A DNA stretch of 10,595 bases from a virus (IMGVR_UViG_2740892219_000002), one strand, 5' to 3'. Positions 1,164 to 10,595 are shown, counted from the stretch's first letter. Notes: generated from the letters alone by a model not told the origin. Numbers and translations are program-made.

Positions 1164-1738
1164 CGCTTTATTACCATCCTCAGCTGATGCTGCAGCGCAT
1201 AGCCCAGCTCTTTCGGAAGACGCTCACGCCGTATCCGTTCAATATTCTGTTTAAACGCCGTGGTCAGCGGCACCGCCATCGGAATTTTCACCACATCAAT
1301 GGGGTAACGGTTTTTCCCGGCCACACGCTGCATGACATGCCACCGGCCATTTTTCAGTTGCTGAATAAACGCGCCGGGAATACGACGGTTTCCCACCACA
1401 AGCACGCTGCCGCCACCTTTCAGGGATGAACGCTGCCCCTTTTTACGACGCCTGCGGCGGGACAGGACAACCCGCGCATTCCCCAGCCTGATTACGGGCA
1501 AATCCCCCCGGTTAACTTTGATTCTGGCCTGCGGATTTTTGACCGTGGCCCTTTTCAGCCTGGCCCTTTCCTTTACCAGTTTCCGGCGTACCTTTGTCTC
1601 ACGGGCAACCTGTGATGAAGACTGATTAATCGCCGTTGTAGCCACGCGGTTAATGGCCATTGCGGCGGCACCAGGCACCGCCGTTTTGCTGATACGGCTG
1701 AGGTTTTCAACGGCCTGCTCAAGACCCTGTATGGCCAT
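1160..1738 (-). CDS. Z: Tail completion protein, lambda gpZ-like (192 aa). Start placed at the internal ATG at 1738, not the ORF-track start at 1804.
   Basis: Protein from MAIQGLEQAVENLSRISKTAVPGAAAMAINRV... matches lambda gpZ closely by recollection, including the RRRRRKKGQRSSLKGGG basic stretch. AAGGGGG lies 5 nt upstream of the ATG at 1738. Length from this start equals lambda gpZ. Confidence 0.88.
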   Translation of the reverse strand: MAIQGLEQAVENLSRISKTAVPGAAAMAINRVATTAINQSSSQVARETKVRRKLVKERARLKRATVKNPQARIKVNRGDLPVIRLGNARVVLSRRRRRKKGQRSSLKGGGSVLVVGNRRIPGAFIQQLKNGRWHVMQRVAGKNRYPIDVVKIPMAVPLTTAFKQNIERIRRERLPKELGYALQHQLRMVIKR

Positions 1739-1749
1739 ATATCCCCCTT

Positions 1750-2103
1750 TCAGCGACGACGGCTGGCGGCAGGTGGTTGCCCCCGGTTGAGCCAGAGATA
1801 ACAACTCCCTCCGTCATCCGGAGAAACACGATCCACCCAGAATATCTCGCCGTTAATGGTCAGCGTGTCACCACGCCGTACAGCACAAACCGTATCCGTA
1901 AGCACAAATAATGACGGGTTGCTTCCTTCAATACGGATCCCACTACTGGCAAAACCCAGCGACTCCGGATCGTCAAAAACGCCATGAACCTCGCCGCCAC
2001 GCTGTGCACCGGAGGTGAACTGCGCACTGATGCCCATCACTTCAACAATCGTACTGTCCACCCCGGCAAGGGCGGCATCAAAGGCATTCTGAAAATCACG
2101 CAT
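1750..2103 (-). CDS. FII: Head-tail joining (head completion) protein, lambda gpFII-like (117 aa). Start placed at the ATG at 2103.
   Basis: From MRDFQNAFDAALAG... the protein is 117 aa, as in lambda FII. C-terminal half (GVFDDPE...SPSLFV...RRGDTLTI...FWVDRVSPDDGGSC.LWL.RG.PPA..RRR) is strongly conserved; N-terminal half is more divergent. The ATG overlaps the FI stop by 8 nt (ATGCGTGA). Confidence 0.85.
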   Translation of the reverse strand: MRDFQNAFDAALAGVDSTIVEVMGISAQFTSGAQRGGEVHGVFDDPESLGFASSGIRIEGSNPSLFVLTDTVCAVRRGDTLTINGEIFWVDRVSPDDGGSCYLWLNRGQPPAASRRR

Positions 2104-2470
2104 AAACAGCCATTCCGCCATCAACGTGTGTTTTTGCATCTGAGGACATAATCAGAATCACCCGACCAACATCCGCAAGCTCAACGGATTCCCCCGTTTC
2201 ACCATCAATGCCACAGAGATGGAGGCAGGTCAGAACTCTGATGCGCGTTAACGCGCCGGATGTTTCCTCACGAACATCATGAGCCGCGGTTTCCTGCTCC
2301 CGGATATCCATATTCATAACCTGTACATCATCGCCGGATGACTGCATTTCCTCTTCCCATTCCGCCACCCGCTGCGCTATCTCTGCGGCACTCCCGGATA
2401 TATCCGGCTCACGCCCCAGAATCAGGGCCAGTTCATCAAGCCGTTTCAGATTTTGCTCTTTCGTTGCCAT
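2096..2470 (-). CDS. FI: DNA-packaging / head assembly protein, lambda gpFI-like (124 aa). Start placed at the ATG at 2470.
   Basis: Position between E and FII. Acidic protein whose N-terminus (MATKEQNLKRLDELALILGRE...) aligns with the start of lambda FI as I recall it. AGGGGG lies 5 nt upstream of the ATG. The longer ORF-track version begins with GTG at 2518, inside the E-FI hairpin. Confidence 0.72.
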   Translation of the reverse strand: MATKEQNLKRLDELALILGREPDISGSAAEIAQRVAEWEEEMQSSGDDVQVMNMDIREQETAAHDVREETSGALTRIRVLTCLHLCGIDGETGESVELADVGRVILIMSSDAKTHVDGGMAVYA

Positions 2471-2484
2471 ATCAGCCCCCTGTG

Positions 2485-2512
2485 AAAAAAGACACGGGGG
2501 CATTTCGCCCCC
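2485..2512 (-). terminator. Putative intrinsic terminator or attenuator hairpin between E and FI: stem GGGGGC / GCCCCC with a 5-nt loop (2512-2496), a 5-nt spacer, then T6 on the transcribed strand (2490-2485).
   Basis: Seen directly: plus strand 2496-2512 gggggcatttcgccccc, plus aaaaaa at 2485-2490. Lies in the 51-nt gap between the E stop (2524-2522) and the FI start (2470). An alternative pairing (cccccgtg...cacaggggg) would sequester the T-run and the FI ribosome-binding site. Confidence 0.4.
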
Positions 2513-2521
2513 GCTCACGGA

Positions 2522-3550
2522 TTATTTCACCTGTACCACCACAAACTCATCCGGGTCCGGCAACACCATCAGCGGCGCGGACTGCGTCATGGTAAATTCA
2601 CGGGCGGGATCCCCCACCGTCAGCCAGTGTTTCGGATAACGGGAAGAGGCCACCACACCTTCGGACAACGCCTGAGCATCCTGAATGGCACCGTAACAAC
2701 GGATCCCATCTGCAGCAGTATTCCCCAGAACCAGCATGCCATCTGGAAGATAACGTTTTTCGATACCGTCTTCTGCTATATAAGACGTTTTCGCCACCAC
2801 AATGGCCAGATCGCCGTAATACCCCTTGAAGGACACCACTGCGCCCAGATCTTTCACTGCCGTTTCGAGTTGAGAATTTGAACCGCGACGGGTATCCAGT
2901 TTTTCGCGGAACAGCTTAAAACCATTCAGAAGACGCCAGACGGTACCGTCCATAATGGCAATATTCACAAGACCGCTGGCTTGGTCGCAGTAGAGGTCAA
3001 TATCATGTGTAGGATCGAACGTGTCACGATCCTGTTTTGACCACTCCTTACCACTACCCTGAGTGATGTTATTCTTCGTCGACCTGCCAAAATCGACCTC
3101 AATTTTCTCGAACTGGTCTCCTTCCATAGTGTATTTGCCATACAACACAGCATTTACCGCCTGCATTTCTTCCACCTGGACAATCGCGTGCTCTTCCTGT
3201 TTGAGGTTATCGGTAATGATACGCAGACGGCGGTAAGCCGGATCATTCAGTTGAGATGGATCTTCACCAGGAAGGCGCTCAACCGCCTGCTGGTAATTAA
3301 ATTCGTGTTTCGGCTTGACGTAGCCCGGACGCAACACGCGGGTTTCACCACCACGATGACGCAGCACTTTTCCTTCAACAACCGGGGAGACATAGGCCGC
3401 CACCGGCGTTTTTCCGGTAATTTTGTCCAGCATCACCTCTTCGGTATGGAAATTCACCGTACGGCGGAAAAACAGCTCCAGAAACAGCGCACGAAATTTA
3501 ACTTTTTGTTCGGTATAACCGAGTAACTGGCGGGTCGTAAACAATCCCAT
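2522..3550 (-). CDS. E: Major capsid protein, lambda gpE-like (342 aa)
   Basis: 342-aa ORF (lambda gpE is 341 aa) with conserved blocks such as PGYVKPKHE, DPAYRR.RII, QVEEMQAV, GKYTM.G, DTRRGSNS.LETAVKDLG, GDPAREFTM.QSAPLM. AAGGA lies 8 nt upstream of the ATG at 3550. Follows the D homologue as in lambda. Confidence 0.92.
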   Translation of the reverse strand: MGLFTTRQLLGYTEQKVKFRALFLELFFRRTVNFHTEEVMLDKITGKTPVAAYVSPVVEGKVLRHRGGETRVLRPGYVKPKHEFNYQQAVERLPGEDPSQLNDPAYRRLRIITDNLKQEEHAIVQVEEMQAVNAVLYGKYTMEGDQFEKIEVDFGRSTKNNITQGSGKEWSKQDRDTFDPTHDIDLYCDQASGLVNIAIMDGTVWRLLNGFKLFREKLDTRRGSNSQLETAVKDLGAVVSFKGYYGDLAIVVAKTSYIAEDGIEKRYLPDGMLVLGNTAADGIRCYGAIQDAQALSEGVVASSRYPKHWLTVGDPAREFTMTQSAPLMVLPDPDEFVVVQVK

Positions 3551-3607: not shown

Positions 3608-3955
3608 TTACGGCAGCGCCGCGTGACTCAGGGCACTGCCAGCAAAGGCGTTGGCCTTTTTGTGTTCATCCACACTTTCAGGCCAGTGGATTGCCTCCGT
3701 CGCAAAGGTTCCCGACTTGTAATACGTCAGCGCCGTCTCTGTGCCTTCAAGCGGCAGTACCAGTATGCCAACCGCACTACCGGCTTTCTGTCCGTCCCAG
3801 ACCACCAGTTTCCCGGTGGCTTCATCCAGCATCAGGGGCGTCAGTGCCGGTGTTGGCGAGGAAATCCCGCTGCTGCCTGTGGCGGTATGAGCCGGATCAT
3901 TACCGGCAAAAATACGTACTTCCGCACGCTGTTCAGTGATGGTTTTCGTCACCAT
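3608..3955 (-). CDS. D: Head decoration protein, lambda gpD-like (115 aa)
   Basis: 115-aa ORF (lambda gpD is 110 aa) with conserved DPAHTAT, TPLMLD, KLV.WDG, AVGIL, YKSGTF and AFAG motifs. AGGAGA lies 10 nt upstream of the ATG at 3955. Sits between C and E as in lambda. Confidence 0.9.
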   Translation of the reverse strand: MVTKTITEQRAEVRIFAGNDPAHTATGSSGISSPTPALTPLMLDEATGKLVVWDGQKAGSAVGILVLPLEGTETALTYYKSGTFATEAIHWPESVDEHKKANAFAGSALSHAALP

Positions 3956-3991: not shown

Positions 3992-4543
3992 TCATGGCAT
4001 GGCCATGAGCATTTTCACGTCCGCATCACCGTCTGCTGACGTCTGTGGCACGCCACCCTGTACCGCTGCCGGTGAATGGTTCGCCATGAAATGTTCAAAC
4101 ATGGCGGTTGTGGATGCAGAGACCGGTTCTGCCTTACCTGATCCCGCAGCCAGCACAGCCCGGGCGCTCTCCACAGTCATTCCCAGGCAGGCAGCCAGCT
4201 GTTCAGCCTGCGCCTCAGCCCCTTTTGCCTCATCCAGTGCCATGATCTGATCACGGAGTGAGGGTCCGGCATCCGCCTGCGGTGAAGCAGCCAGGATCGG
4301 GCGGGCTTTTTCCACCGTCATCTCCGGCATCGCCGCCAGCGTTGCCGCCAGTTGTTCACGACCTTTCGCTTCTTCACACGCCATAATGCGATCGGCTTCA
4401 CTCTGCGCGGGTACCACCGGCTGCTGTGGTGCCGCCGCGGCCAGAATCGCCCGGGCCTGTTCAACGCTCATGCCCTGTTGTCCTGCCAGCATCGTGGCAA
4501 GCTGTTCACGTCCTTTCGCTTCCTGGCATGTCAGGATCCCCAT
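3992..4543 (-). CDS. Possible nested in-frame scaffold protein (lambda Nu3 analogue), starting at the internal ATG at 4543 (residue M319 of C).
   Basis: Lambda expresses its scaffold Nu3 from an internal in-frame start inside C (established knowledge). Here AGGAGA lies 11 nt upstream of the internal ATG at 4543-4541 (seen), immediately before the repeat region. The exact start is inference. Confidence 0.35.
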   Translation of the reverse strand: MGILTCQEAKGREQLATMLAGQQGMSVEQARAILAAAAPQQPVVPAQSEADRIMACEEAKGREQLAATLAAMPEMTVEKARPILAASPQADAGPSLRDQIMALDEAKGAEAQAEQLAACLGMTVESARAVLAAGSGKAEPVSASTTAMFEHFMANHSPAAVQGGVPQTSADGDADVKMLMAMP

Positions 4544-5497
4544 AACTCGCTGGTTCTCCTGCGCGGCGGCTTCCGTTGCAGTTAATTGCGGCATAGTGCC
4601 TCCTCTGACATTACTGTTCAGCGCCGTGGCCATCACACTGATGGCATCCGACGCATTGACTAATTCATCCGCCAGCCCGGCATCAATGCCGGACTGACCT
4701 TCAAAAACGGCGGCCTCTGTTCCCGTGACGGCATCAACAGACAGGCCGGTAAACATCGCCACTTTTTCGGCAAACATCCGGCGCGCCGCATCAATCCGCT
4801 GCTGCATGTCCTGGCGAACCTCTGCCGGCAACGCTTCAAACTGATTGCCATCCACCTTGTGCGCCCCTGAGTAAATCAGCGTGATATCCACACCGGCCTG
4901 CGCCAGATGACCGGCATAGCTGACATGGCTCATCATCACGCCAATGGAGCCGATACGGGATGTCTGGGTAACCAGCCGTCGGGAGCAGGCCGACGCCAGC
5001 AGCATGGCTGCAGAACAGGCCGTGTCATTGCACAGTGCCCAGACCGGCTTCTGCTGACGGAGGCGGTAAATCATGTCAGCGCAGTCAAACGCTCCGGCGG
5101 CCTGCCCGCCCGGACTGTCAATGTCCAGCAGTACGCCCCGCACCTGGCTATCCGCCATTGCCTGCTGAAGACAGGCGACAATGCCGTCATAGCCTGTCAT
5201 TCCGGAAAATGGCCGCATACCACCCAGCCGGTGCACCAGCGTGCCGGTCACCGGCAGTACAGCAATACCGTTCACCACCCGGTAAACACGGGCCGGTCGT
5301 TTACCTCCGGCCATATACTCGTCCGTTTCAGCCAGCATTCCGGGAGCATCAAGCTGTACCTGTTGTTGTGGTACCGAAAGACTTGCTGCCCCCATCTCGC
5401 GCCCGAGCGCGCAAAAGAAAACCCGCGCATAGGCGGGCTCCAGAAGCAGCGGTTCATTGAATGCTGCGGCAATAATGTGTGAAAGATTACGTCTCAC
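3992..5497 (-). CDS. C: Capsid assembly (prohead) protease, lambda gpC-like (S49/ClpP-like family), with a C-terminal scaffold-type repeat region. GTG start at 5497.
   Basis: 501-aa ORF. N-terminal two-thirds align with lambda gpC as I recall it (AFNEPL.LEPAYARVFFCAL, NGIAVLPV.GTLV, SGMTGY.GI, GG.AAGAFDCAD.I, KPVWAL.ND..CSA..LLASA.SRRLVTQT.R.GSIGVMM.H, ITLIYSG.HKVDGN, TEAAV..GQ..IDAGLADELVN). AGAGGAGA lies about 9 nt upstream of the GTG. Start overlaps the portal stop by 11 nt. Confidence 0.9.
   Translation of the reverse strand: MRRNLSHIIAAAFNEPLLLEPAYARVFFCALGREMGAASLSVPQQQVQLDAPGMLAETDEYMAGGKRPARVYRVVNGIAVLPVTGTLVHRLGGMRPFSGMTGYDGIVACLQQAMADSQVRGVLLDIDSPGGQAAGAFDCADMIYRLRQQKPVWALCNDTACSAAMLLASACSRRLVTQTSRIGSIGVMMSHVSYAGHLAQAGVDITLIYSGAHKVDGNQFEALPAEVRQDMQQRIDAARRMFAEKVAMFTGLSVDAVTGTEAAVFEGQSGIDAGLADELVNASDAISVMATALNSNVRGGTMPQLTATEAAAQENQRVMGILTCQEAKGREQLATMLAGQQGMSVEQARAILAAAAPQQPVVPAQSEADRIMACEEAKGREQLAATLAAMPEMTVEKARPILAASPQADAGPSLRDQIMALDEAKGAEAQAEQLAACLGMTVESARAVLAAGSGKAEPVSASTTAMFEHFMANHSPAAVQGGVPQTSADGDADVKMLMAMP
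4142..4549 (-). repeat. Three tandem in-frame copies (about 36-40 aa each, roughly 150-nt period) of a scaffold-type motif within the C/Nu3 coding region.
   Basis: Protein copies: RVMGILTCQEAKGREQLATMLAGQQGMSVEQARAILAAA, RIMACEEAKGREQLAATLAAMPEMTVEKARPILAAS, QIMALDEAKGAEAQAEQLAACLGMTVESARAVLAAG. DNA-level echoes such as gttcacgNcctttcgcttc at 4355-4372 and about 4504-4521. Confidence 0.7.
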
Positions 5498-7079
5498 GTG
5501 GTGTTGTCTCCTCTTCCGGCCTGCGACTCTCCGCTATCTGCTGCTGATACGCCTGCGCTATCCACACCGGACGTGAGAGTCCGGCTTTTTCCCGCTCTGC
5601 AGATTCCCTGACCTGCTGGCGGAAAATGTCCTGATAATCCTCGCCCATCAGCGCCAGCTCTTTCTCATACGTGCTCAGTCCGGCCTCAATGCGCATCACT
5701 GATTCCTGGACTTCCTTGAGCCCATCAATGGTCATTCTTCCGGCTCCAATCCACTCTGCCCGTGACCAGGCTGATCGCGCCTGATAAAAATCAAAACGTG
5801 CCCGTGGCGGACGAATAATCCCCCGAAGAAGTGCCTCTTCCAGCCAGCAGGAAAACATCTGCGTGGCCAGCCGGGCCGCAATAAATTTTCGCCGCCCCAT
5901 AAAATAGCGCCACGACTCATTGGCGGAGGCGCGGGCACTTGAGTAACTGACCTTCGAGTAATCACGGGACAACTGTTCGTAGGAAACGCCAAGACCGGCG
6001 GCGATATACCGCAGCAACGCCTGTTCAAGCGCAGAAAATCCATTGTCTGAATCCTGCGCAGTCTGTAGTTTCAGATCATCACCAGGGAAAAGGTGCGGAA
6101 TTTTGACACCGCCCAGTGTCACGTTATTCGTGTCATACCAGCTGGAGAACTTCTCCAGAATATTAATAAGCGGATTATCCTTCTGCTCCTGTGGCGCGCC
6201 GGCGATATATTCAAAGGCCTTTTCGGTATCAAGTTCACTTTCAATCGTCGCTGCATACATCGCCTTCACTATGGCCGACTGAAGCTGTGTTGCCTGCAGG
6301 GAATCGAGCATCTTCAGCCGTTCCATGACGCTGTAAAACTGATTAGCCCCACGAGTCTGCCCGTCCTCCACCGGCTCGAAAATATGCAGCATGGCCGGAC
6401 GCCCGGTGGCAAGTTCACGCGGGATCCGTTCCCATCGTCCACTACCAGAGAACGGAAAATCATCCTCACAGATATGGTACGCAACGGCACGGCCATATCG
6501 ATCGACCTCCACACCGGCCCGCAGAAAGCGGTTCCCCATACCGTGTCCTGGCGTGTCCACCCGTTTCGGACTCACGGCTTTAAAACGCGTACGAAATAAC
6601 TGCGTGGTTTCCGTATCCCAGACCGGCTGCACAAAGATTTCGCCGTTAAACGCATGAACGCCCACACCTTCACGGATAAATTCCGTAAATGTGCGTTTTC
6701 CTTCCACGTCGATCTCGCCAAACATCCCTTCTGCGTATTCCGACCAGGCCGCCTCCACCTCATCGACAAAGCTTTTTGCTGCGGTCTCCCGCATCCCCAG
6801 CCAGCGCCAGTTCGGACGGTAGCTGATCAGAAACATATGCCCGACAATGTGATCCTTATGCAGGGCCACCGCATTAGCCGCTATTCCGTTATTGCGCACC
6901 AGATCATCTGCCCGGGCATTCCCCAGACGCAACGCGGGCAGCAGGGCCGCATCGACACTCTGCGCCGGTGGCAACCACTCCGCCATTTGCCCGCCAAATC
7001 CTGCGCCGCCCCCGTTGTAGCTGAGACTCTCACGAAGCGGAACGCCGTTCACATCAATCAGGACAGGCGTTCGTTTCAT
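5487..7079 (-). CDS. B: Portal protein, lambda gpB-like (530 aa)
   Basis: 530-aa ORF (lambda gpB is 533 aa) with long conserved blocks (DAALLP, GNARADDLVRNNG, KRTFT..IREGV..HAFNGE.FVQ..WDT, LFRT.F..VSPKR, EPVEDGQTRGAN.FYSVME..KMLD.LQ.TQLQSAIVKAMYAATIESELDT, LLRYIAAGLGVSYEQLSR, ARASANESW.YFMGRRKF, GRM.IDGLKEVQE.VM.IEAGLSTYEKE). Start ATG at 7079 overlaps the W stop (ATGA). Confidence 0.93.
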   Translation of the reverse strand: MKRTPVLIDVNGVPLRESLSYNGGGAGFGGQMAEWLPPAQSVDAALLPALRLGNARADDLVRNNGIAANAVALHKDHIVGHMFLISYRPNWRWLGMRETAAKSFVDEVEAAWSEYAEGMFGEIDVEGKRTFTEFIREGVGVHAFNGEIFVQPVWDTETTQLFRTRFKAVSPKRVDTPGHGMGNRFLRAGVEVDRYGRAVAYHICEDDFPFSGSGRWERIPRELATGRPAMLHIFEPVEDGQTRGANQFYSVMERLKMLDSLQATQLQSAIVKAMYAATIESELDTEKAFEYIAGAPQEQKDNPLINILEKFSSWYDTNNVTLGGVKIPHLFPGDDLKLQTAQDSDNGFSALEQALLRYIAAGLGVSYEQLSRDYSKVSYSSARASANESWRYFMGRRKFIAARLATQMFSCWLEEALLRGIIRPPRARFDFYQARSAWSRAEWIGAGRMTIDGLKEVQESVMRIEAGLSTYEKELALMGEDYQDIFRQQVRESAEREKAGLSRPVWIAQAYQQQIAESRRPEEETTPRET

Positions 7080-7282
7080 AACCTCACTCCCAGCGGACGA
7101 CGGCGACGTCGGGTTGTCCCCAGTACCGACTCCGCATCATTGATCGCCCGGTTAAGCTCATCCAGAGAAGCCGCCGTATATTCAATTCTGCGACCATCTT
7201 TCTGGACAGACACCACCCGTTTACCGGTTAATAAATCAAGGCGCGCCTGACGCAGCGCCTGCAGTTCAGCGACTGTAACCAT
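7076..7282 (-). CDS. W: Head-tail joining / head completion protein, lambda gpW-like (68 aa)
   Basis: 68-aa ORF, same length as lambda gpW, with the conserved core TGKRV..VQKDGRR.E.TA.S and a C-terminal RRRRP.G motif. GGAGGAG lies upstream of the ATG at 7282. Sits between the large terminase and portal genes as in lambda. Confidence 0.85.
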   Translation of the reverse strand: MVTVAELQALRQARLDLLTGKRVVSVQKDGRRIEYTAASLDELNRAINDAESVLGTTRRRRRPLGVRL

Positions 7283-9194
7283 TCACTCCTCCGGACAGCT
7301 TCGCTGCCAGTTCTTTCAGGGTTGGCCGGGTCGTCTCTTCTTCCCGGGATTTTGCCAGTACAGCCAGATCAAGCTGCCAGCGTTGCACGGACACACGTAA
7401 TGCCGCGTAGGCATACACCAGGCAGTCCAGCGCTTCGTTACGCCGCTTTTTGTTATCCCACAGCAGACGCATCTTTCCTTTTTCCCACTTCTCCACAAGC
7501 TCTTCCGCGACCAGTTGCTGCGCCTCTGTCTGCGAAAAAATCTCCGGATCATCAGGAAAACGGATGGCATACGACGTGGATTCATCCGCAGGCGTGGGAG
7601 CGGCTTTCATACGGGCATAGAGAATTTCTTTTGCGGTGTCTGTCCCCACTTCACACAGATACACACCCCGCTGATTGCGGGTTTTTGGCATGGTGATCAC
7701 CGGCTTGCCATAGACAGATGCGCCTTTTACCGGCAGCACCCGGAAAACACCGTGTTTTTTTGACCTCTGATAAACGATTTCGCCATCGATCCCCCCGATG
7801 TCCCAGCAGACACGGGAAATGGTCATTTCGGTTCCGTCTGCATGGCGGTATTTTTTGTTGATCGCCGCATCCACACGTAACAGCGTCTCTTCCTCATCGG
7901 GACGTCCCATAATGATGATTTTATCCACCAGAAAGGCTTCCTCTCCCGGAGCCCATCCCCAGACATACATCTCAAAACGGTTTCGCTGCGAGTCAATGCC
8001 CGCCGTCAGATAAACCACCCGGGCTGGCACCGCCGCCGTGTAATGCACAACCTTATCCATCAGTACCTGGTGATCGAGTTTTTCGCCCACGGCCTCTTCC
8101 CAGGTCTCGCCCAGCGTGGTGTTAACAAAAGTTTTCAGACCGTTGGGATCTTTCAGTGCATCCAGCCAGTCATAGACAATCTGTACCCAGGTGGTGAACG
8201 GACTGTACGCCGTCCAGATATGGAAAGTGATGGAGCGCGGCGGCGGAATTTCATCCCCCCGGGCGCTGAAAAACATCAGGCCGTCACGGGTCCACATGCT
8301 CGTGTTTTCACAGATCCACCGCCCGTTACTCTGGTCAAGCTCAGACTGATGGATCACACAGCCATGATGCTCACAAAGGTAGAAAACACTTTCTGGCTTA
8401 TTCTTCTCCCACTTAAGACCGAAAGGCGAGGCATCATCGCCAAATTTCAGATACTGCGCCTCCCCACAGTGCGGACAGGGCACGTAAAAACGCATGAAAT
8501 GTGCCGACTCGTTAGCGGCTTTTTCGATCTGGCAGGAGCCTTTGATTTTAGGCGTCGAGCCGCGAATGGATTTTGGCCATACAGAGCCCTCAATACGTTT
8601 ATCCCCCAGCAGGGTTGGCGACCCCTCTTTTTCAACATCCGGTTCGAACGAGGAAAGCTCGTCATAACAGACCACATCCACGGATTTTTCACGGTAGTTT
8701 TTGGCGGCAGCGCCGCCCAGGCACCAGAAGCCCACACCCGATGAAAAGCGTTTCAGCGTGAGAGTATTGTCACGATGTTTACGACCCAGCCATGGGGAAA
8801 GGTCTTTCAGGCATGGCACGTCCCGAATCGTCGCCTCCACGTGAGACTTCATAAAATCTTCAGCGGCAGAATCCGTGGGCTGAAAAAGCAGACTGTTTCG
8901 GGATTTATGCTCAATAAAATACCCGACCACCCCCAGCAACATCTTTGTATAGCCAACACGGGCAGATTTAATCAGATTAACAGTGCGGATCTGATCATTC
9001 CCCATACTGTTCATGATGGCGATCTGGAATGGCAGCGTTTTCCATTCGCCGTCACCGTATGAGGATTCTTTAGGCAGATAATAATTTTGATCAGCCCATT
9101 CAACTGCCGTCATCGGTACAACCCTGACCAGAGGCTGCAGCGCAACCGAAACGGCAGCCATCATATTATTCAGTTGTTGCTCTGATATATTCAT
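7266..9194 (-). CDS. A: Terminase large subunit, lambda gpA-like (642 aa). Start placed at the ATG at 9194.
   Basis: Extensive conservation with lambda gpA as I recall it (TAVEWADQNYYLPKESSY, KSARVGYTKMLLG, HVE.TIRD, KHRDNTLT.KRF, FWCLGG.AAKNYREKSVDV, FLGDKRIEGSVWPKSIRGSTPK, HFMRF.V.CPHCGE.QYLKFGD, YLCEH..CVI.Q.ELD, FHIWTAYSPFTTWVQIV, FVNTTLGETWE, YLTAGIDSQ, GKPV..MP, KKRRNEALDC.VYA.AALR). Length from 9194 is 642 aa against 641 for lambda. Overlaps the end of the Nu1 homologue by 29 nt, as lambda Nu1/A overlap. Confidence 0.93.
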   Translation of the reverse strand: MNISEQQLNNMMAAVSVALQPLVRVVPMTAVEWADQNYYLPKESSYGDGEWKTLPFQIAIMNSMGNDQIRTVNLIKSARVGYTKMLLGVVGYFIEHKSRNSLLFQPTDSAAEDFMKSHVEATIRDVPCLKDLSPWLGRKHRDNTLTLKRFSSGVGFWCLGGAAAKNYREKSVDVVCYDELSSFEPDVEKEGSPTLLGDKRIEGSVWPKSIRGSTPKIKGSCQIEKAANESAHFMRFYVPCPHCGEAQYLKFGDDASPFGLKWEKNKPESVFYLCEHHGCVIHQSELDQSNGRWICENTSMWTRDGLMFFSARGDEIPPPRSITFHIWTAYSPFTTWVQIVYDWLDALKDPNGLKTFVNTTLGETWEEAVGEKLDHQVLMDKVVHYTAAVPARVVYLTAGIDSQRNRFEMYVWGWAPGEEAFLVDKIIIMGRPDEEETLLRVDAAINKKYRHADGTEMTISRVCWDIGGIDGEIVYQRSKKHGVFRVLPVKGASVYGKPVITMPKTRNQRGVYLCEVGTDTAKEILYARMKAAPTPADESTSYAIRFPDDPEIFSQTEAQQLVAEELVEKWEKGKMRLLWDNKKRRNEALDCLVYAYAALRVSVQRWQLDLAVLAKSREEETTRPTLKELAAKLSGGVNGYSR

Positions 9195-9675
9195 CGAGTA
9201 AATCCGGTAATTTATCCCCTGCCCGCGCACACTGATTTGCCCCCTTCGCAATAAGGGTTTTCAGATGGTCAAGATGGCGCGGTGTTAAATCAGGAAACTG
9301 TCGCTGCATGGATAAAGGGATGGAATCAAGCGTACTGGATAACGCCATTGCCAGCTTACTGAGGGCAAAAATACAGAATCCGGTGTCAATAAGCTTTCCT
9401 TCGGACGCCTGATTTTTTAATTGCTGGGCGATTGCCTGTTCTTCGATCAACTTCCATCTGGCAATGAGTAACTTTTCTTCATAGTCGTCTTCGCTATCGC
9501 CATCAGGCACATCGTTTTTACTTCTCCTCAGATACGATATGTAAAAATCACGCCAGGCATCCAGATCCAGTTGTCCTCGCTTATTCGAGACCGGAGCACC
9601 CGGCAATTTCTGCAATCTGCGAAGCTGGCGATCGGTCAGACTCAAATGCCTGGCAACTTCAGTCTGCGTAGCCAC
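9166..9675 (-). CDS. Nu1: Terminase small subunit, lambda gpNu1-like (169 aa). Apparent GTG start at 9675.
   Basis: C-terminal half aligns with lambda Nu1 as I recall it (ETAFC.F.LS...IAS.LD.IPLS.QR.FP.L..RH.D.LK, then ..LP.LL.EYI). The N-terminus has a helix-turn-helix-like segment (EVARHLSLTDRQLRRL). The ORF begins 195 nt from the cos end (lambda: 191). GAGG lies 6 nt upstream of the GTG. The N-terminal region is diverged from lambda. Confidence 0.82.
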   Translation of the reverse strand: MATQTEVARHLSLTDRQLRRLQKLPGAPVSNKRGQLDLDAWRDFYISYLRRSKNDVPDGDSEDDYEEKLLIARWKLIEEQAIAQQLKNQASEGKLIDTGFCIFALSKLAMALSSTLDSIPLSMQRQFPDLTPRHLDHLKTLIAKGANQCARAGDKLPDLLDEYIRATTE

Positions 9676-9722
9676 TCCTCACCTCGCAAAAACTCTTACC
9701 TCACAATCAGCACAAAACCGGT

Positions 9723-9821
9723 CATGTCCGGTTTATATGTCTATTTTTTGCGCATGTCCGGTTCACGGAAAACCTGTTTTTATATTTTTTATGTAGTTAA
9801 CTTGCAGAGAAACCGGACATG
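9723..9821 (-). promoter_or_regulatory. cosB-like region containing three copies of an 11-bp element, CATGTCCGGTT: direct at 9723-9733 and 9753-9763, inverted at 9811-9821. Candidate small-terminase binding sites, analogous to lambda R1, R2 and R3. The A/T-rich stretch between the second and third copies may be an IHF bending site.
   Basis: Repeats seen directly. Arrangement (one inverted copy nearest cosN, A/T-rich spacer, two direct copies, then the Nu1 start) mirrors the lambda cosB layout (established knowledge). I did not find a clean IHF consensus (WATCAANNNNTTR) by eye. Confidence 0.55.
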
Positions 9822-9858
9822 GTTCCCGGAAAATTTTCATAAATAGCGAAAAACCGCG

Positions 9859-9870
9859 AGGTCGCCGCCC
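9859..9870 (-). other. cosN cohesive-end sequence. On the minus strand this reads GGGCGGCGACCT, identical to the 12-nt single-stranded end of lambda DNA.
   Basis: Plus strand 9859-9870 is aggtcgccgccc (seen). The reverse complement of 9826-9870 reads GGGCGGCGACCTCGCGGTTTTTCGCTATTTATGAAAATTTTCCGG, matching the beginning of the lambda genome as I recall it over about 45 nt with one difference. Located 184-195 nt upstream of the Nu1 start, as in lambda. Confidence 0.85.
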
Positions 9871-9945
9871 CGTAGCCTGCCGGATCGCTGGAAAGGACCC
9901 AGCTACTAGCGAATGCCAGTAGCCAAGGTGGGCTGCGGGCTTAAT

Positions 9946-10191
9946 TTAAAGCGGTGTGATTTGCAACCATTCAGACGCACTAATCTCAAAGCGACGTCCG
10001 TTAGACAACTCGATAATCACGGGTAATTCACCTAGCTCCAGCCAGGCGTTTTTTTCCGTTGGAAAACTAACAGTAGAGATCTGGTAATCCAATACGCTTT
10101 CAGCCAGTCGGCAACTTTTAAACACATCACCAAGGGCGGACGCGAAGAATACATTTAGCTCATATTCAATCTGCTCTTTAGCAGCTGTCAT
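9946..10191 (-). CDS. Hypothetical 81-aa protein, the last gene before cos (phage right end). Function unknown; not recognised.
   Basis: Uninterrupted 81-aa ORF with protein-like, acidic composition and no obvious transmembrane segment. Same strand as the late genes. Ribosome-binding site is weak (GAG about 9 nt upstream). The segment looks AT-richer than the structural genes by eye. Confidence 0.5.
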   Translation of the reverse strand: MTAAKEQIEYELNVFFASALGDVFKSCRLAESVLDYQISTVSFPTEKNAWLELGELPVIIELSNGRRFEISASEWLQITPL

Positions 10192-10323
10192 GTTTCTGTC
10201 TCATCAACTTGAATAGGGTAATCAGGAATGGATGCGAACTACAGGTCGTCTGCACCATCTTTCAGATTAAAGCAGCGCCACATTTCGTCAGGGTCAGTAT
10301 TAGCCGACATCTCGTGCACCTGA

Positions 10324-10434
10324 TTAATGTTTGGCGATATTACAACAGGCGTTCAATGAATGCATATTGTAAGCCTCTCGCTCAGGAGAACAGAATCGTT
10401 CCATTATTGAATTAAATTTCTGCGACTCTTTCAT
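10324..10434 (-). CDS. Hypothetical small protein (36 aa, MKESQKFNSIMERFCSPEREAYNMHSLNACCNIAKH) with a near-consensus ribosome-binding site.
   Basis: AGGAGG at 10445-10440 lies 5 nt upstream of the ATG at 10434-10432. The ATG overlaps the TGA of an upstream ORF (TGATG), a typical translational-coupling junction. Too short to judge on composition. Confidence 0.3.
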   Translation of the reverse strand: MKESQKFNSIMERFCSPEREAYNMHSLNACCNIAKH

Positions 10435-10595
10435 CACAACCTCCTGACAAATATACCGTGCGACCGTGGTCGCACGCTCCTGAATACATGCCCTGTTTCT
10501 TCCACCCTCGCACAGGACTGGCGAGCATGAGGGACAAACCCGCGAATCATTAGCGCGGTAAAAACCCGGTGTGCATCGTTTTTGATTATTTCCGC
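10434..10595 (-). CDS. 3' end of an ORF that enters from beyond the window edge (C-terminus ...AEIIKNDAHRVFTALMIRGFVPHARQSCARVEETGHVFRSVRPRSHGIFVRRL), stop TGA at 10436-10434. Identity unknown.
   Basis: Minus-strand frame is open from the window edge to the TGA that overlaps the start of the 36-aa ORF. Coding status is uncertain: the composition is Arg-rich and could be a chance open frame. Confidence 0.2.
   Translation of the reverse strand, partial: AEIIKNDAHRVFTALMIRGFVPHARQSCARVEETGHVFRSVRPRSHGIFVRRL
10458..10475. promoter_or_regulatory. Perfect 8-bp inverted repeat with a 2-bp spacer (GTGCGACC-GT-GGTCGCAC), immediately upstream of a TATATT -10-like hexamer (minus strand, 10455-10450) and the AGGAGG site. 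Operator-like.
   Basis: Palindrome and -10-like hexamer seen directly. No good -35 hexamer at 17-bp spacing. Function is inference. Confidence 0.3.

Follow-up and report, generated by a model that had tools for sequence, protein, structure and literature searches.

Is the repeated scaffold motif in the head operon of a lambda-like phage a recent expansion, or a long-standing part of the protein? The question is raised by a stretch of viral DNA (IMGVR_UViG_2740892219_000002; 10,595 nucleotides, here called the window), in which an open reading frame (ORF) of 501 amino acids with a GTG start (3992–5497, minus strand) encodes gene 5. This gene is a homologue of lambda C, in which an S49 prohead protease is fused in frame to a scaffold region. 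The original prediction, made from the DNA sequence alone, noted three consecutive copies of a motif in the C-terminal third of the ORF and took them for an expansion. We find that the three copies are real, and that they very probably represent a known and ancient triplication, the Tri boxes, of a scaffold module of ~47–53 amino acids in gene products 5 and 6 (gp5 and gp6) of phage-21-type phages, the homologues of lambda C and Nu3.

The three units follow one another without interruption on the minus strand. R1 (amino acids 316–368; 4394–4552) has the translated sequence QRVMGILTCQEAKGREQLATMLAGQQGMSVEQARAILAAAAPQQPVVPAQSEA, with a long first helix and the extra residues 'GIL'. R2 (amino acids 369–415; 4253–4393) reads DRIMACEEAKGREQLAATLAAMPEMTVEKARPILAASPQADAGPSLR, and R3 (amino acids 416–462; 4112–4252) reads DQIMALDEAKGAEAQAEQLAACLGMTVESARAVLAAGSGKAEPVSAS. 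R3 is the most diverged unit, carrying EAKGAEAQAEQLA. Behind it lies a C-terminal tail (amino acids 463–501; 3995–4111, minus strand) that has one short predicted helix (TTAMFEHFMANH) and finishes in a conserved ...LMxMP. The pairwise BLOSUM62 local scores among R1, R2, and R3 are 109, 88, and 92 (z = 16.5, 11.9, and 13.1), compared to a mean of ~26 (standard deviation 5) and a top score of at most 53 in composition-preserving shuffles. Seventeen alignment columns hold the same residue in all three units, and PHROG scaffold profiles match the ORF in three to four separate stretches. The claim of three consecutive copies is thus borne out by the shuffles and the invariant columns, and the range first given for them, 4142–4549, corresponds to the conserved cores of R1–R3.

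The similarity also extends to the DNA, as had been proposed with a period of ~150 nucleotides, and the actual periods are 159 and 141 nucleotides. The DNA-level repeat is weak, with identities of 64/88 (R1/R2), 76/111 (R2/R3), and 31/42 (R1/R3) nucleotides, or 68–73%; the units are 44–55% identical in protein. Tandem Repeats Finder detected no array at 4100–4600 even at a minimum score of 30, and a DNA repeat search within the array returned only seeds of 12–19 nucleotides. R1–R3 repeat at the level of the protein and have diverged; they do not form a DNA tandem array or a contingency array of the type formed by variable numbers of tandem repeats.

The repeat has been in public annotation since 1993. 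The GenBank record of the bacteriophage 21 head gene operon (M81255) lists three repeat regions inside gene 6, named 'Tri1 box', 'Tri box', and 'Tri3 box', with the remark 'function unknown; putative'. These map to window positions 4424–4527, 4277–4387, and 4133–4246 (minus strand), that is, to the cores of R1, R2, and R3, respectively. Because the boxes coincide with these cores, the triplication is a real but already known feature that was rediscovered here. The three-unit sequence occurs ungapped in the 1993 phage 21 record, in a complete phage 21 genome from 2021, and in ~17 other phage records. The Sanger and modern phage 21 sequences are independent determinations and are identical to each other. 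Among 5426 complete E. coli genomes, 1865 likewise contain the region as one piece without gaps, and their best matches also keep three units; the exact 501-amino acid protein was found in 74 blocks of the assembly collection. An assembly error, against which read support was to be checked, is therefore not the source of the three-unit form, since the same sequence recurs in the independent phage 21 records and in the 1865 complete genomes.

We next compare the ORF with lambda C/Nu3, of which the original prediction had taken it to be a homologue. This assignment holds, with 54% amino acid identity to lambda C over the protease and the first unit (E = 4e-142). Amino acids 146–293 (4619–5062, minus strand) form a Peptidase_S49 (SppA-like) catalytic domain, matched by Pfam PF01343 at 120.7 bits (cut-off 24.9). 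The SppA chains 3rst and 4kwb in the PDB align to amino acids 77–290 (E ~5e-16), and the best PHROG is phrog_53, head maturation protease (E = 3e-227). Lambda C, at 439 amino acids, has a single unit at approximately amino acids 360–407, which is the orthologue of R1. The window protein does carry copies beyond that of lambda, and the two extra units account for ~100 amino acids. The expected explanation of the extra length holds in this respect, but the net difference is 62 amino acids, because the linker of lambda C between M309 and the unit is ~36 amino acids longer.

One unit is the usual state among homologues. A tblastn search of gp6 against 50,697 phage records found 20 phage-21-type records that cover the whole query and ~98 that match a single stretch of ~45–50 amino acids, among them lambda, 434, N15, phi80, HK225, HK629/630, mEp237, and Stx1a phages. 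A three-unit profile searched against 1.84 billion representative proteins (clustered at 50% identity) gave 487 proteins at E ≤ 0.001. One unit was present in 135 of the best 150 of these, and in 58 of the 60 members of that best-scoring subset having at least 380 amino acids. Because the single unit is so common, it is probably the ancestral state as well. Two-unit proteins occur independently in the unrelated lineages of P0144, P0203, and P0235.

The triplication is nevertheless old. Three units in the same order are found in Gifsy-1 STM2605 (498 amino acids, ~71% nucleotide identity), P0123 (505 amino acids, 58% identity), P0121 (57% identity), and P0125 (50% identity). R1 orthologues are 65–80% identical across lineages, compared to 41–57% between R1 and its R2 and R3 paralogues. 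The conserved order in diverged relatives and the closer relationship of R1 orthologues than of paralogues together indicate that the triplication predates the split of the phage 21, Gifsy-1, P0121, P0123, and P0125 lineages and has been kept since. R2 and R3 are the faster-evolving units. Neither has the 'GIL' residues of R1 and of the lambda unit, and both begin with D(R/Q)IMA, a common architecture that fits serial internal duplication.

The identity values alone are no proof of such an internal origin, since R2 and R3 are equally near the single units of other phages (43–58% identity) and R1 (44–55%). The extra units might instead have been captured, through illegitimate or homologous recombination, from the scaffold genes of other phages, a mosaic acquisition for which lambdoid head genes, mosaic as they are, offer precedent; the window itself leaves phage 21 at its end near the small terminase gene (terS) and cos. 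We regard this account as improbable. The units are arranged head-to-tail and in frame within one gene, the derived architecture common to R2 and R3 fits serial duplication, and the two-unit proteins P0144, P0203, and P0235 point to recurrent internal duplication of the module.

Close relatives do differ in copy number. We classified the 120 best-scoring homologue clusters by internal insertions or deletions of at least five residues relative to the window protein. Of the classes that concern the array, the largest, of 66 clusters, has 482 amino acids and a 19-amino acid deletion inside R2. One-unit deletions form three classes: 12 clusters (451 amino acids, with one of 435) lack amino acids 326–375, eight clusters (451 amino acids) lack amino acids 348–397, with a further cluster lacking 351–400, and four clusters (452 amino acids) lack amino acids 357–405. 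Nine clusters, of 439–501 amino acids, have no internal insertion or deletion, the entries of 439 and 440 amino acids being partial sequences. A single cluster (472 amino acids) has a 29-amino acid deletion, and two (551 amino acids) have a 50-amino acid insertion. At least three distinct one-unit deletions thus occur in E. coli prophages. All join R1 to R2; R3 is never removed by them and is kept in all variant alleles examined.

One of these alleles, P0080 (451 amino acids; locus L004), has no mismatch to the window ORF over 1356 nucleotides, except for a clean deletion of 150 nucleotides. Its crossover site, as seen at the L004 junction, is the 11-nucleotide stretch GAAGCGAAAGG, which lies in R1 at 4512–4522 (minus strand) and recurs in R2 at 4362–4372. 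P0080 is a very recent derivative of the window's own allele. The suggestion that the repeats could serve as a substrate for recombination is accordingly confirmed by natural one-unit deletions with junctions in shared sequence.

This variability is what could be expected of a recent and unstable expansion specific to this element, in which a lambda-like unit was lately amplified by slippage, its copy number being in flux and without a selected role. Two-unit alleles of 451 and 452 amino acids, R2-damaged alleles of 482 amino acids, a duplicated allele of 657 amino acids (described below), and a deletion allele otherwise identical to the window are all in keeping with such flux. However, the units are only ~70% identical in DNA and are not seen as an array by Tandem Repeats Finder, R1 orthologues group together, and ordered units are retained in Gifsy-1 and in proteins of 50–58% identity. 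Furthermore, three units occur in every isolated phage-21-type phage of the collection. These observations largely refute a recent element-specific expansion, and we consider it very unlikely. A third explanation, that R1–R3 result from misassembly or from chance similarity in a region rich in Ala, Gln, and Glu, has a negligible probability and is ruled out by the shuffles (z = 12–16), the matching Sanger and modern phage 21 sequences, the 1865 complete genomes, and the exact protein in many assemblies, even though the two 551-amino acid 'four-unit' proteins do look artefactual.

Those two proteins (loci L006 and L014; GCA_900537015.1 and GCA_900536945.1; gene at L014:1274–2929) come from one sequencing project. 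Each has two 150-nucleotide copies that are 100% identical, with N at both junctions, and they are probably assembly or consensus artefacts rather than a real expansion. An allele of 657 amino acids is in a complete E. coli genome (CP007136.1, L009; gene 1501–3474). It has an internal duplication of 468 nucleotides, reaching from where the protease domain ends to where R3 begins, with a junction in a short GGCTG-like similarity. This allele could be real, or the strain's many similar prophages could have been misassembled.

Several related loci are rearranged or decayed. In E. coli O157:H7 (CP038421.1, L008), a two-unit allele of 452 amino acids lies beside a truncated major capsid gene (88 amino acids) that abuts a tail gene. 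Because of this truncation, at least some of the shortened alleles can be placed in decayed prophages. In P0081 (721 amino acids) and P0089/P0090 (577 amino acids), unrelated sequence that resembles tail fibre or side tail fibre proteins is fused to the gene just past R3; these are rearranged prophage remnants, annotated only as 'S49 family peptidase'. In CP025907.1 ('Escherichia phage 204576', L016), the units are split over three frames within R2, the frameshifts being either sequencing errors or the mark of a pseudogene.

As in lambda, the scaffold is predicted to be made from a nested gene. The original prediction placed its start at M319, which would give a product of ~183 amino acids. 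We find that the start is most likely M302 (MPQLTATE), giving gene 6, the Nu3 homologue, 200 amino acids (3992–4594, minus strand) with the frame and stop shared with gene 5. Upstream of M302 is the Shine-Dalgarno sequence GAGGAGG (4599–4605, minus strand), identified by its pairing with the anti-Shine-Dalgarno sequence and annotated as the ribosome-binding site in M81255 and OL657228. Its pairing energy of −12.0 kcal/mol is the best by far among in-frame starts between amino acids 225 and 335, compared to −7.4 kcal/mol and a long spacer for M319. Both phage 21 records annotate gene 6 as beginning at M302. This Met is conserved in Gifsy-1, P0121, P0123, and P0125, and corresponds to the first Met of P0125, which was called as a separate protein. 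Energy, annotation, and conservation thus favor M302 over M319.

M302 aligns with M309 of lambda C, which is preceded by a strong Shine-Dalgarno sequence (−10.8 kcal/mol). The annotated start of nu3 in the RefSeq record of lambda (NC_001416, L003, 2333–2938) is Met239 of C, giving 201 amino acids with a weak Shine-Dalgarno sequence (−6.9 kcal/mol); this start conflicts with the strong signal before M309, the homologue of the phage 21 gene 6 start. Two 'CII binding site' annotations in the phage 21 record of 2021, OL657228 (2409–2422 and 2643–2656), based only on the pattern ttgynnnnnnttgy, are located inside gene 6 on the opposite strand. They correspond to window positions ~4585–4598, at the gene 6 start, and ~4351–4364, in R2.

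Each unit is confidently predicted by modeling to be a small three-helix bundle. A single-unit model based on an alignment of 60 unit sequences has a pLDDT of 90.7 and a pTM of 0.74, with helices at residues 2–17, 26–33, and 40–49. In the AlphaFold2 model of gp6, short helices are grouped by threes into three blocks (pLDDT ~80), which are joined by flexible linkers rich in Pro, Ala, and Gln (pLDDT <60) and followed by a tail with a helix at 161–172 and then a largely disordered segment (pLDDT <50). The LMxMP-ended tail is conserved in the alignment of three-copy relatives. A Foldseek search of predicted viral structures identified the module in other S49 prohead proteases (TM 0.88–0.90). PHROG scaffold families do cover the unit, with matches in at least three stretches, but no Pfam or NCBIfam model does. 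The unit was also considered as a P22-type helix-turn-helix coat-binding domain, and this was rejected, as we found neither sequence similarity nor a specific fold match to that domain.

What might three units do? Lambda Nu3 is required for prohead assembly and portal incorporation, is degraded by the protease, and interacts with C, B, E, and itself (PMC3224144). These interactions, and the presence of the module in both gp5 and gp6 as in C and Nu3, suggest that the unit is an independent protein-binding module, which may bind the major capsid protein or portal on its inner face, or may serve in self-association of the scaffold. By this proposal gp6 would be trivalent and lambda Nu3 monovalent, and gp5 would enter the prohead through the modules it has in common with gp6. 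At the DNA level, short identical stretches such as the 11-nucleotide GAAGCGAAAGG still permit unequal recombination or slippage despite the ~70% identity of the units, and such events have given rise to several natural alleles with two units or partial deletions in E. coli prophages.

Two points weigh against so simple a mechanism. Two-unit and R2-damaged alleles are common in prophages, and lambda gpNu3 is reportedly intrinsically disordered, according to the title of a paper cited in reference lists. The idea that repeat number alters scaffold stoichiometry, put forward in the original prediction, is speculation. The three units are ancient and conserved while one is the norm, and it can therefore be argued that the extra units do something. 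We propose tentatively, as a possibility we would not favor, that the Tri unit represents a three-helix domain, widespread and uncurated, of S49 prohead protease and scaffold proteins, with copy number acting as a tunable scaffold valency: three in viable phages of the phage 21 and Gifsy-1 type, and repeatedly cut to two or damaged in E. coli prophages by unequal recombination.

If this were true, the alleles would form a natural series with which to probe scaffold valency in prohead nucleation, in incorporation of the portal and protease, and in prophage decay. The two-unit and R2-damaged alleles, one of them isogenic with the window, provide a simple genetic handle on valency. As a discovery the triplication carries small weight, having been annotated since the early 1990s in a gene pair that is a textbook homologue of lambda C/Nu3. 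A modest residual value lies in the module itself, which is listed as 'function unknown' and lacks a curated domain family. The alleles also caution annotators that length variants of this 'S49 family peptidase' stem from recombination within the array.

All large ORFs of the window are on the minus strand and constitute a head and proximal tail operon of the lambda type. In operon order, these encode a small terminase (9166–9675), a large terminase (~7266–9251), a W-like protein (7076–7282), the portal (5487–7079), gene 5 as described above, a D-like decoration protein (3608–3955), an E-like major capsid protein (2522–3550), then FI, FII/Hc1, Z-like, and U-like proteins, and the major tail protein (20–790). 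Gene 5 is therefore located between the portal and the decoration and major capsid genes, as in lambda-like head operons. An 81-amino acid ORF (9946–10191, minus strand) has no PHROG match. A 12-nucleotide tandem repeat (AAACAGCGCAAG, 2.2 copies, score 33) at 3470–3496, close to the 5' end of the gene for the major capsid protein, is probably trivial.

Starting within the large terminase gene and continuing as far as the tail gene, the window is collinear with phage 21 (~97% identity). Its terS- and cos-proximal end (~9112–10595) is not collinear with phage 21, 4A7, ev017, or similar phages, to which matches end at ~9112, and is matched in two pieces by PhiR57_1 and PhiR63_2. This suggests a mosaic junction inside or beside the terminase genes, possibly with another packaging specificity. 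Because this end is not collinear, the window is a prophage relative of phage 21 and not phage 21 itself.

The closest known system is the gene 5/6 pair of phage 21 (M81255, OL657228), which is the same gene with 501 amino acids, three units, and the same gene 6 start and ribosome-binding site. The two ORFs have the same length and align ungapped at 98.7% nucleotide identity, and differ by 20 nucleotide substitutions; 11 of these are non-synonymous, and half of the substitutions fall in amino acids 318–441. The other difference is the departure of the window at its terS- and cos-proximal end. Salmonella phage Gifsy-1 STM2605, also a homologue of lambda gpC, is similar in length, in its three ordered units, and in the context of the nested start (M...L(S/T)A...). 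It differs in its lower nucleotide identity and in having a canonical EAKGREELA in R3, whereas the window has EAKGAEAQAEQLA. Lambda C/Nu3 resembles the window genes in its position between the portal (B) and D/E, in the logic of its nested gene, and in the sequence of its module (RIMGILNCEEAHGREEQARVLAETPGMTVKTARRILAAAP), and differs in having one unit instead of three, a longer linker before the unit, and a total of 439 amino acids.

Further afield, the P22 gp8-type scaffold has a C-terminal helix-turn-helix coat-binding domain (PMC10275583, PMC12005531) and is similar in that a small helical module is part of a scaffold protein. This domain provides a plausible analogy for docking of a Tri unit on the capsid protein. 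It differs in being a single domain at the extreme C-terminus, whereas the Tri units are internal, triplicated, and followed by a separate tail. Also among the closest systems are tandem three-helix-bundle binding modules of bacterial surface proteins, namely protein A and the affibody, the GA albumin-binding module, and the Ebh and Embp repeats.
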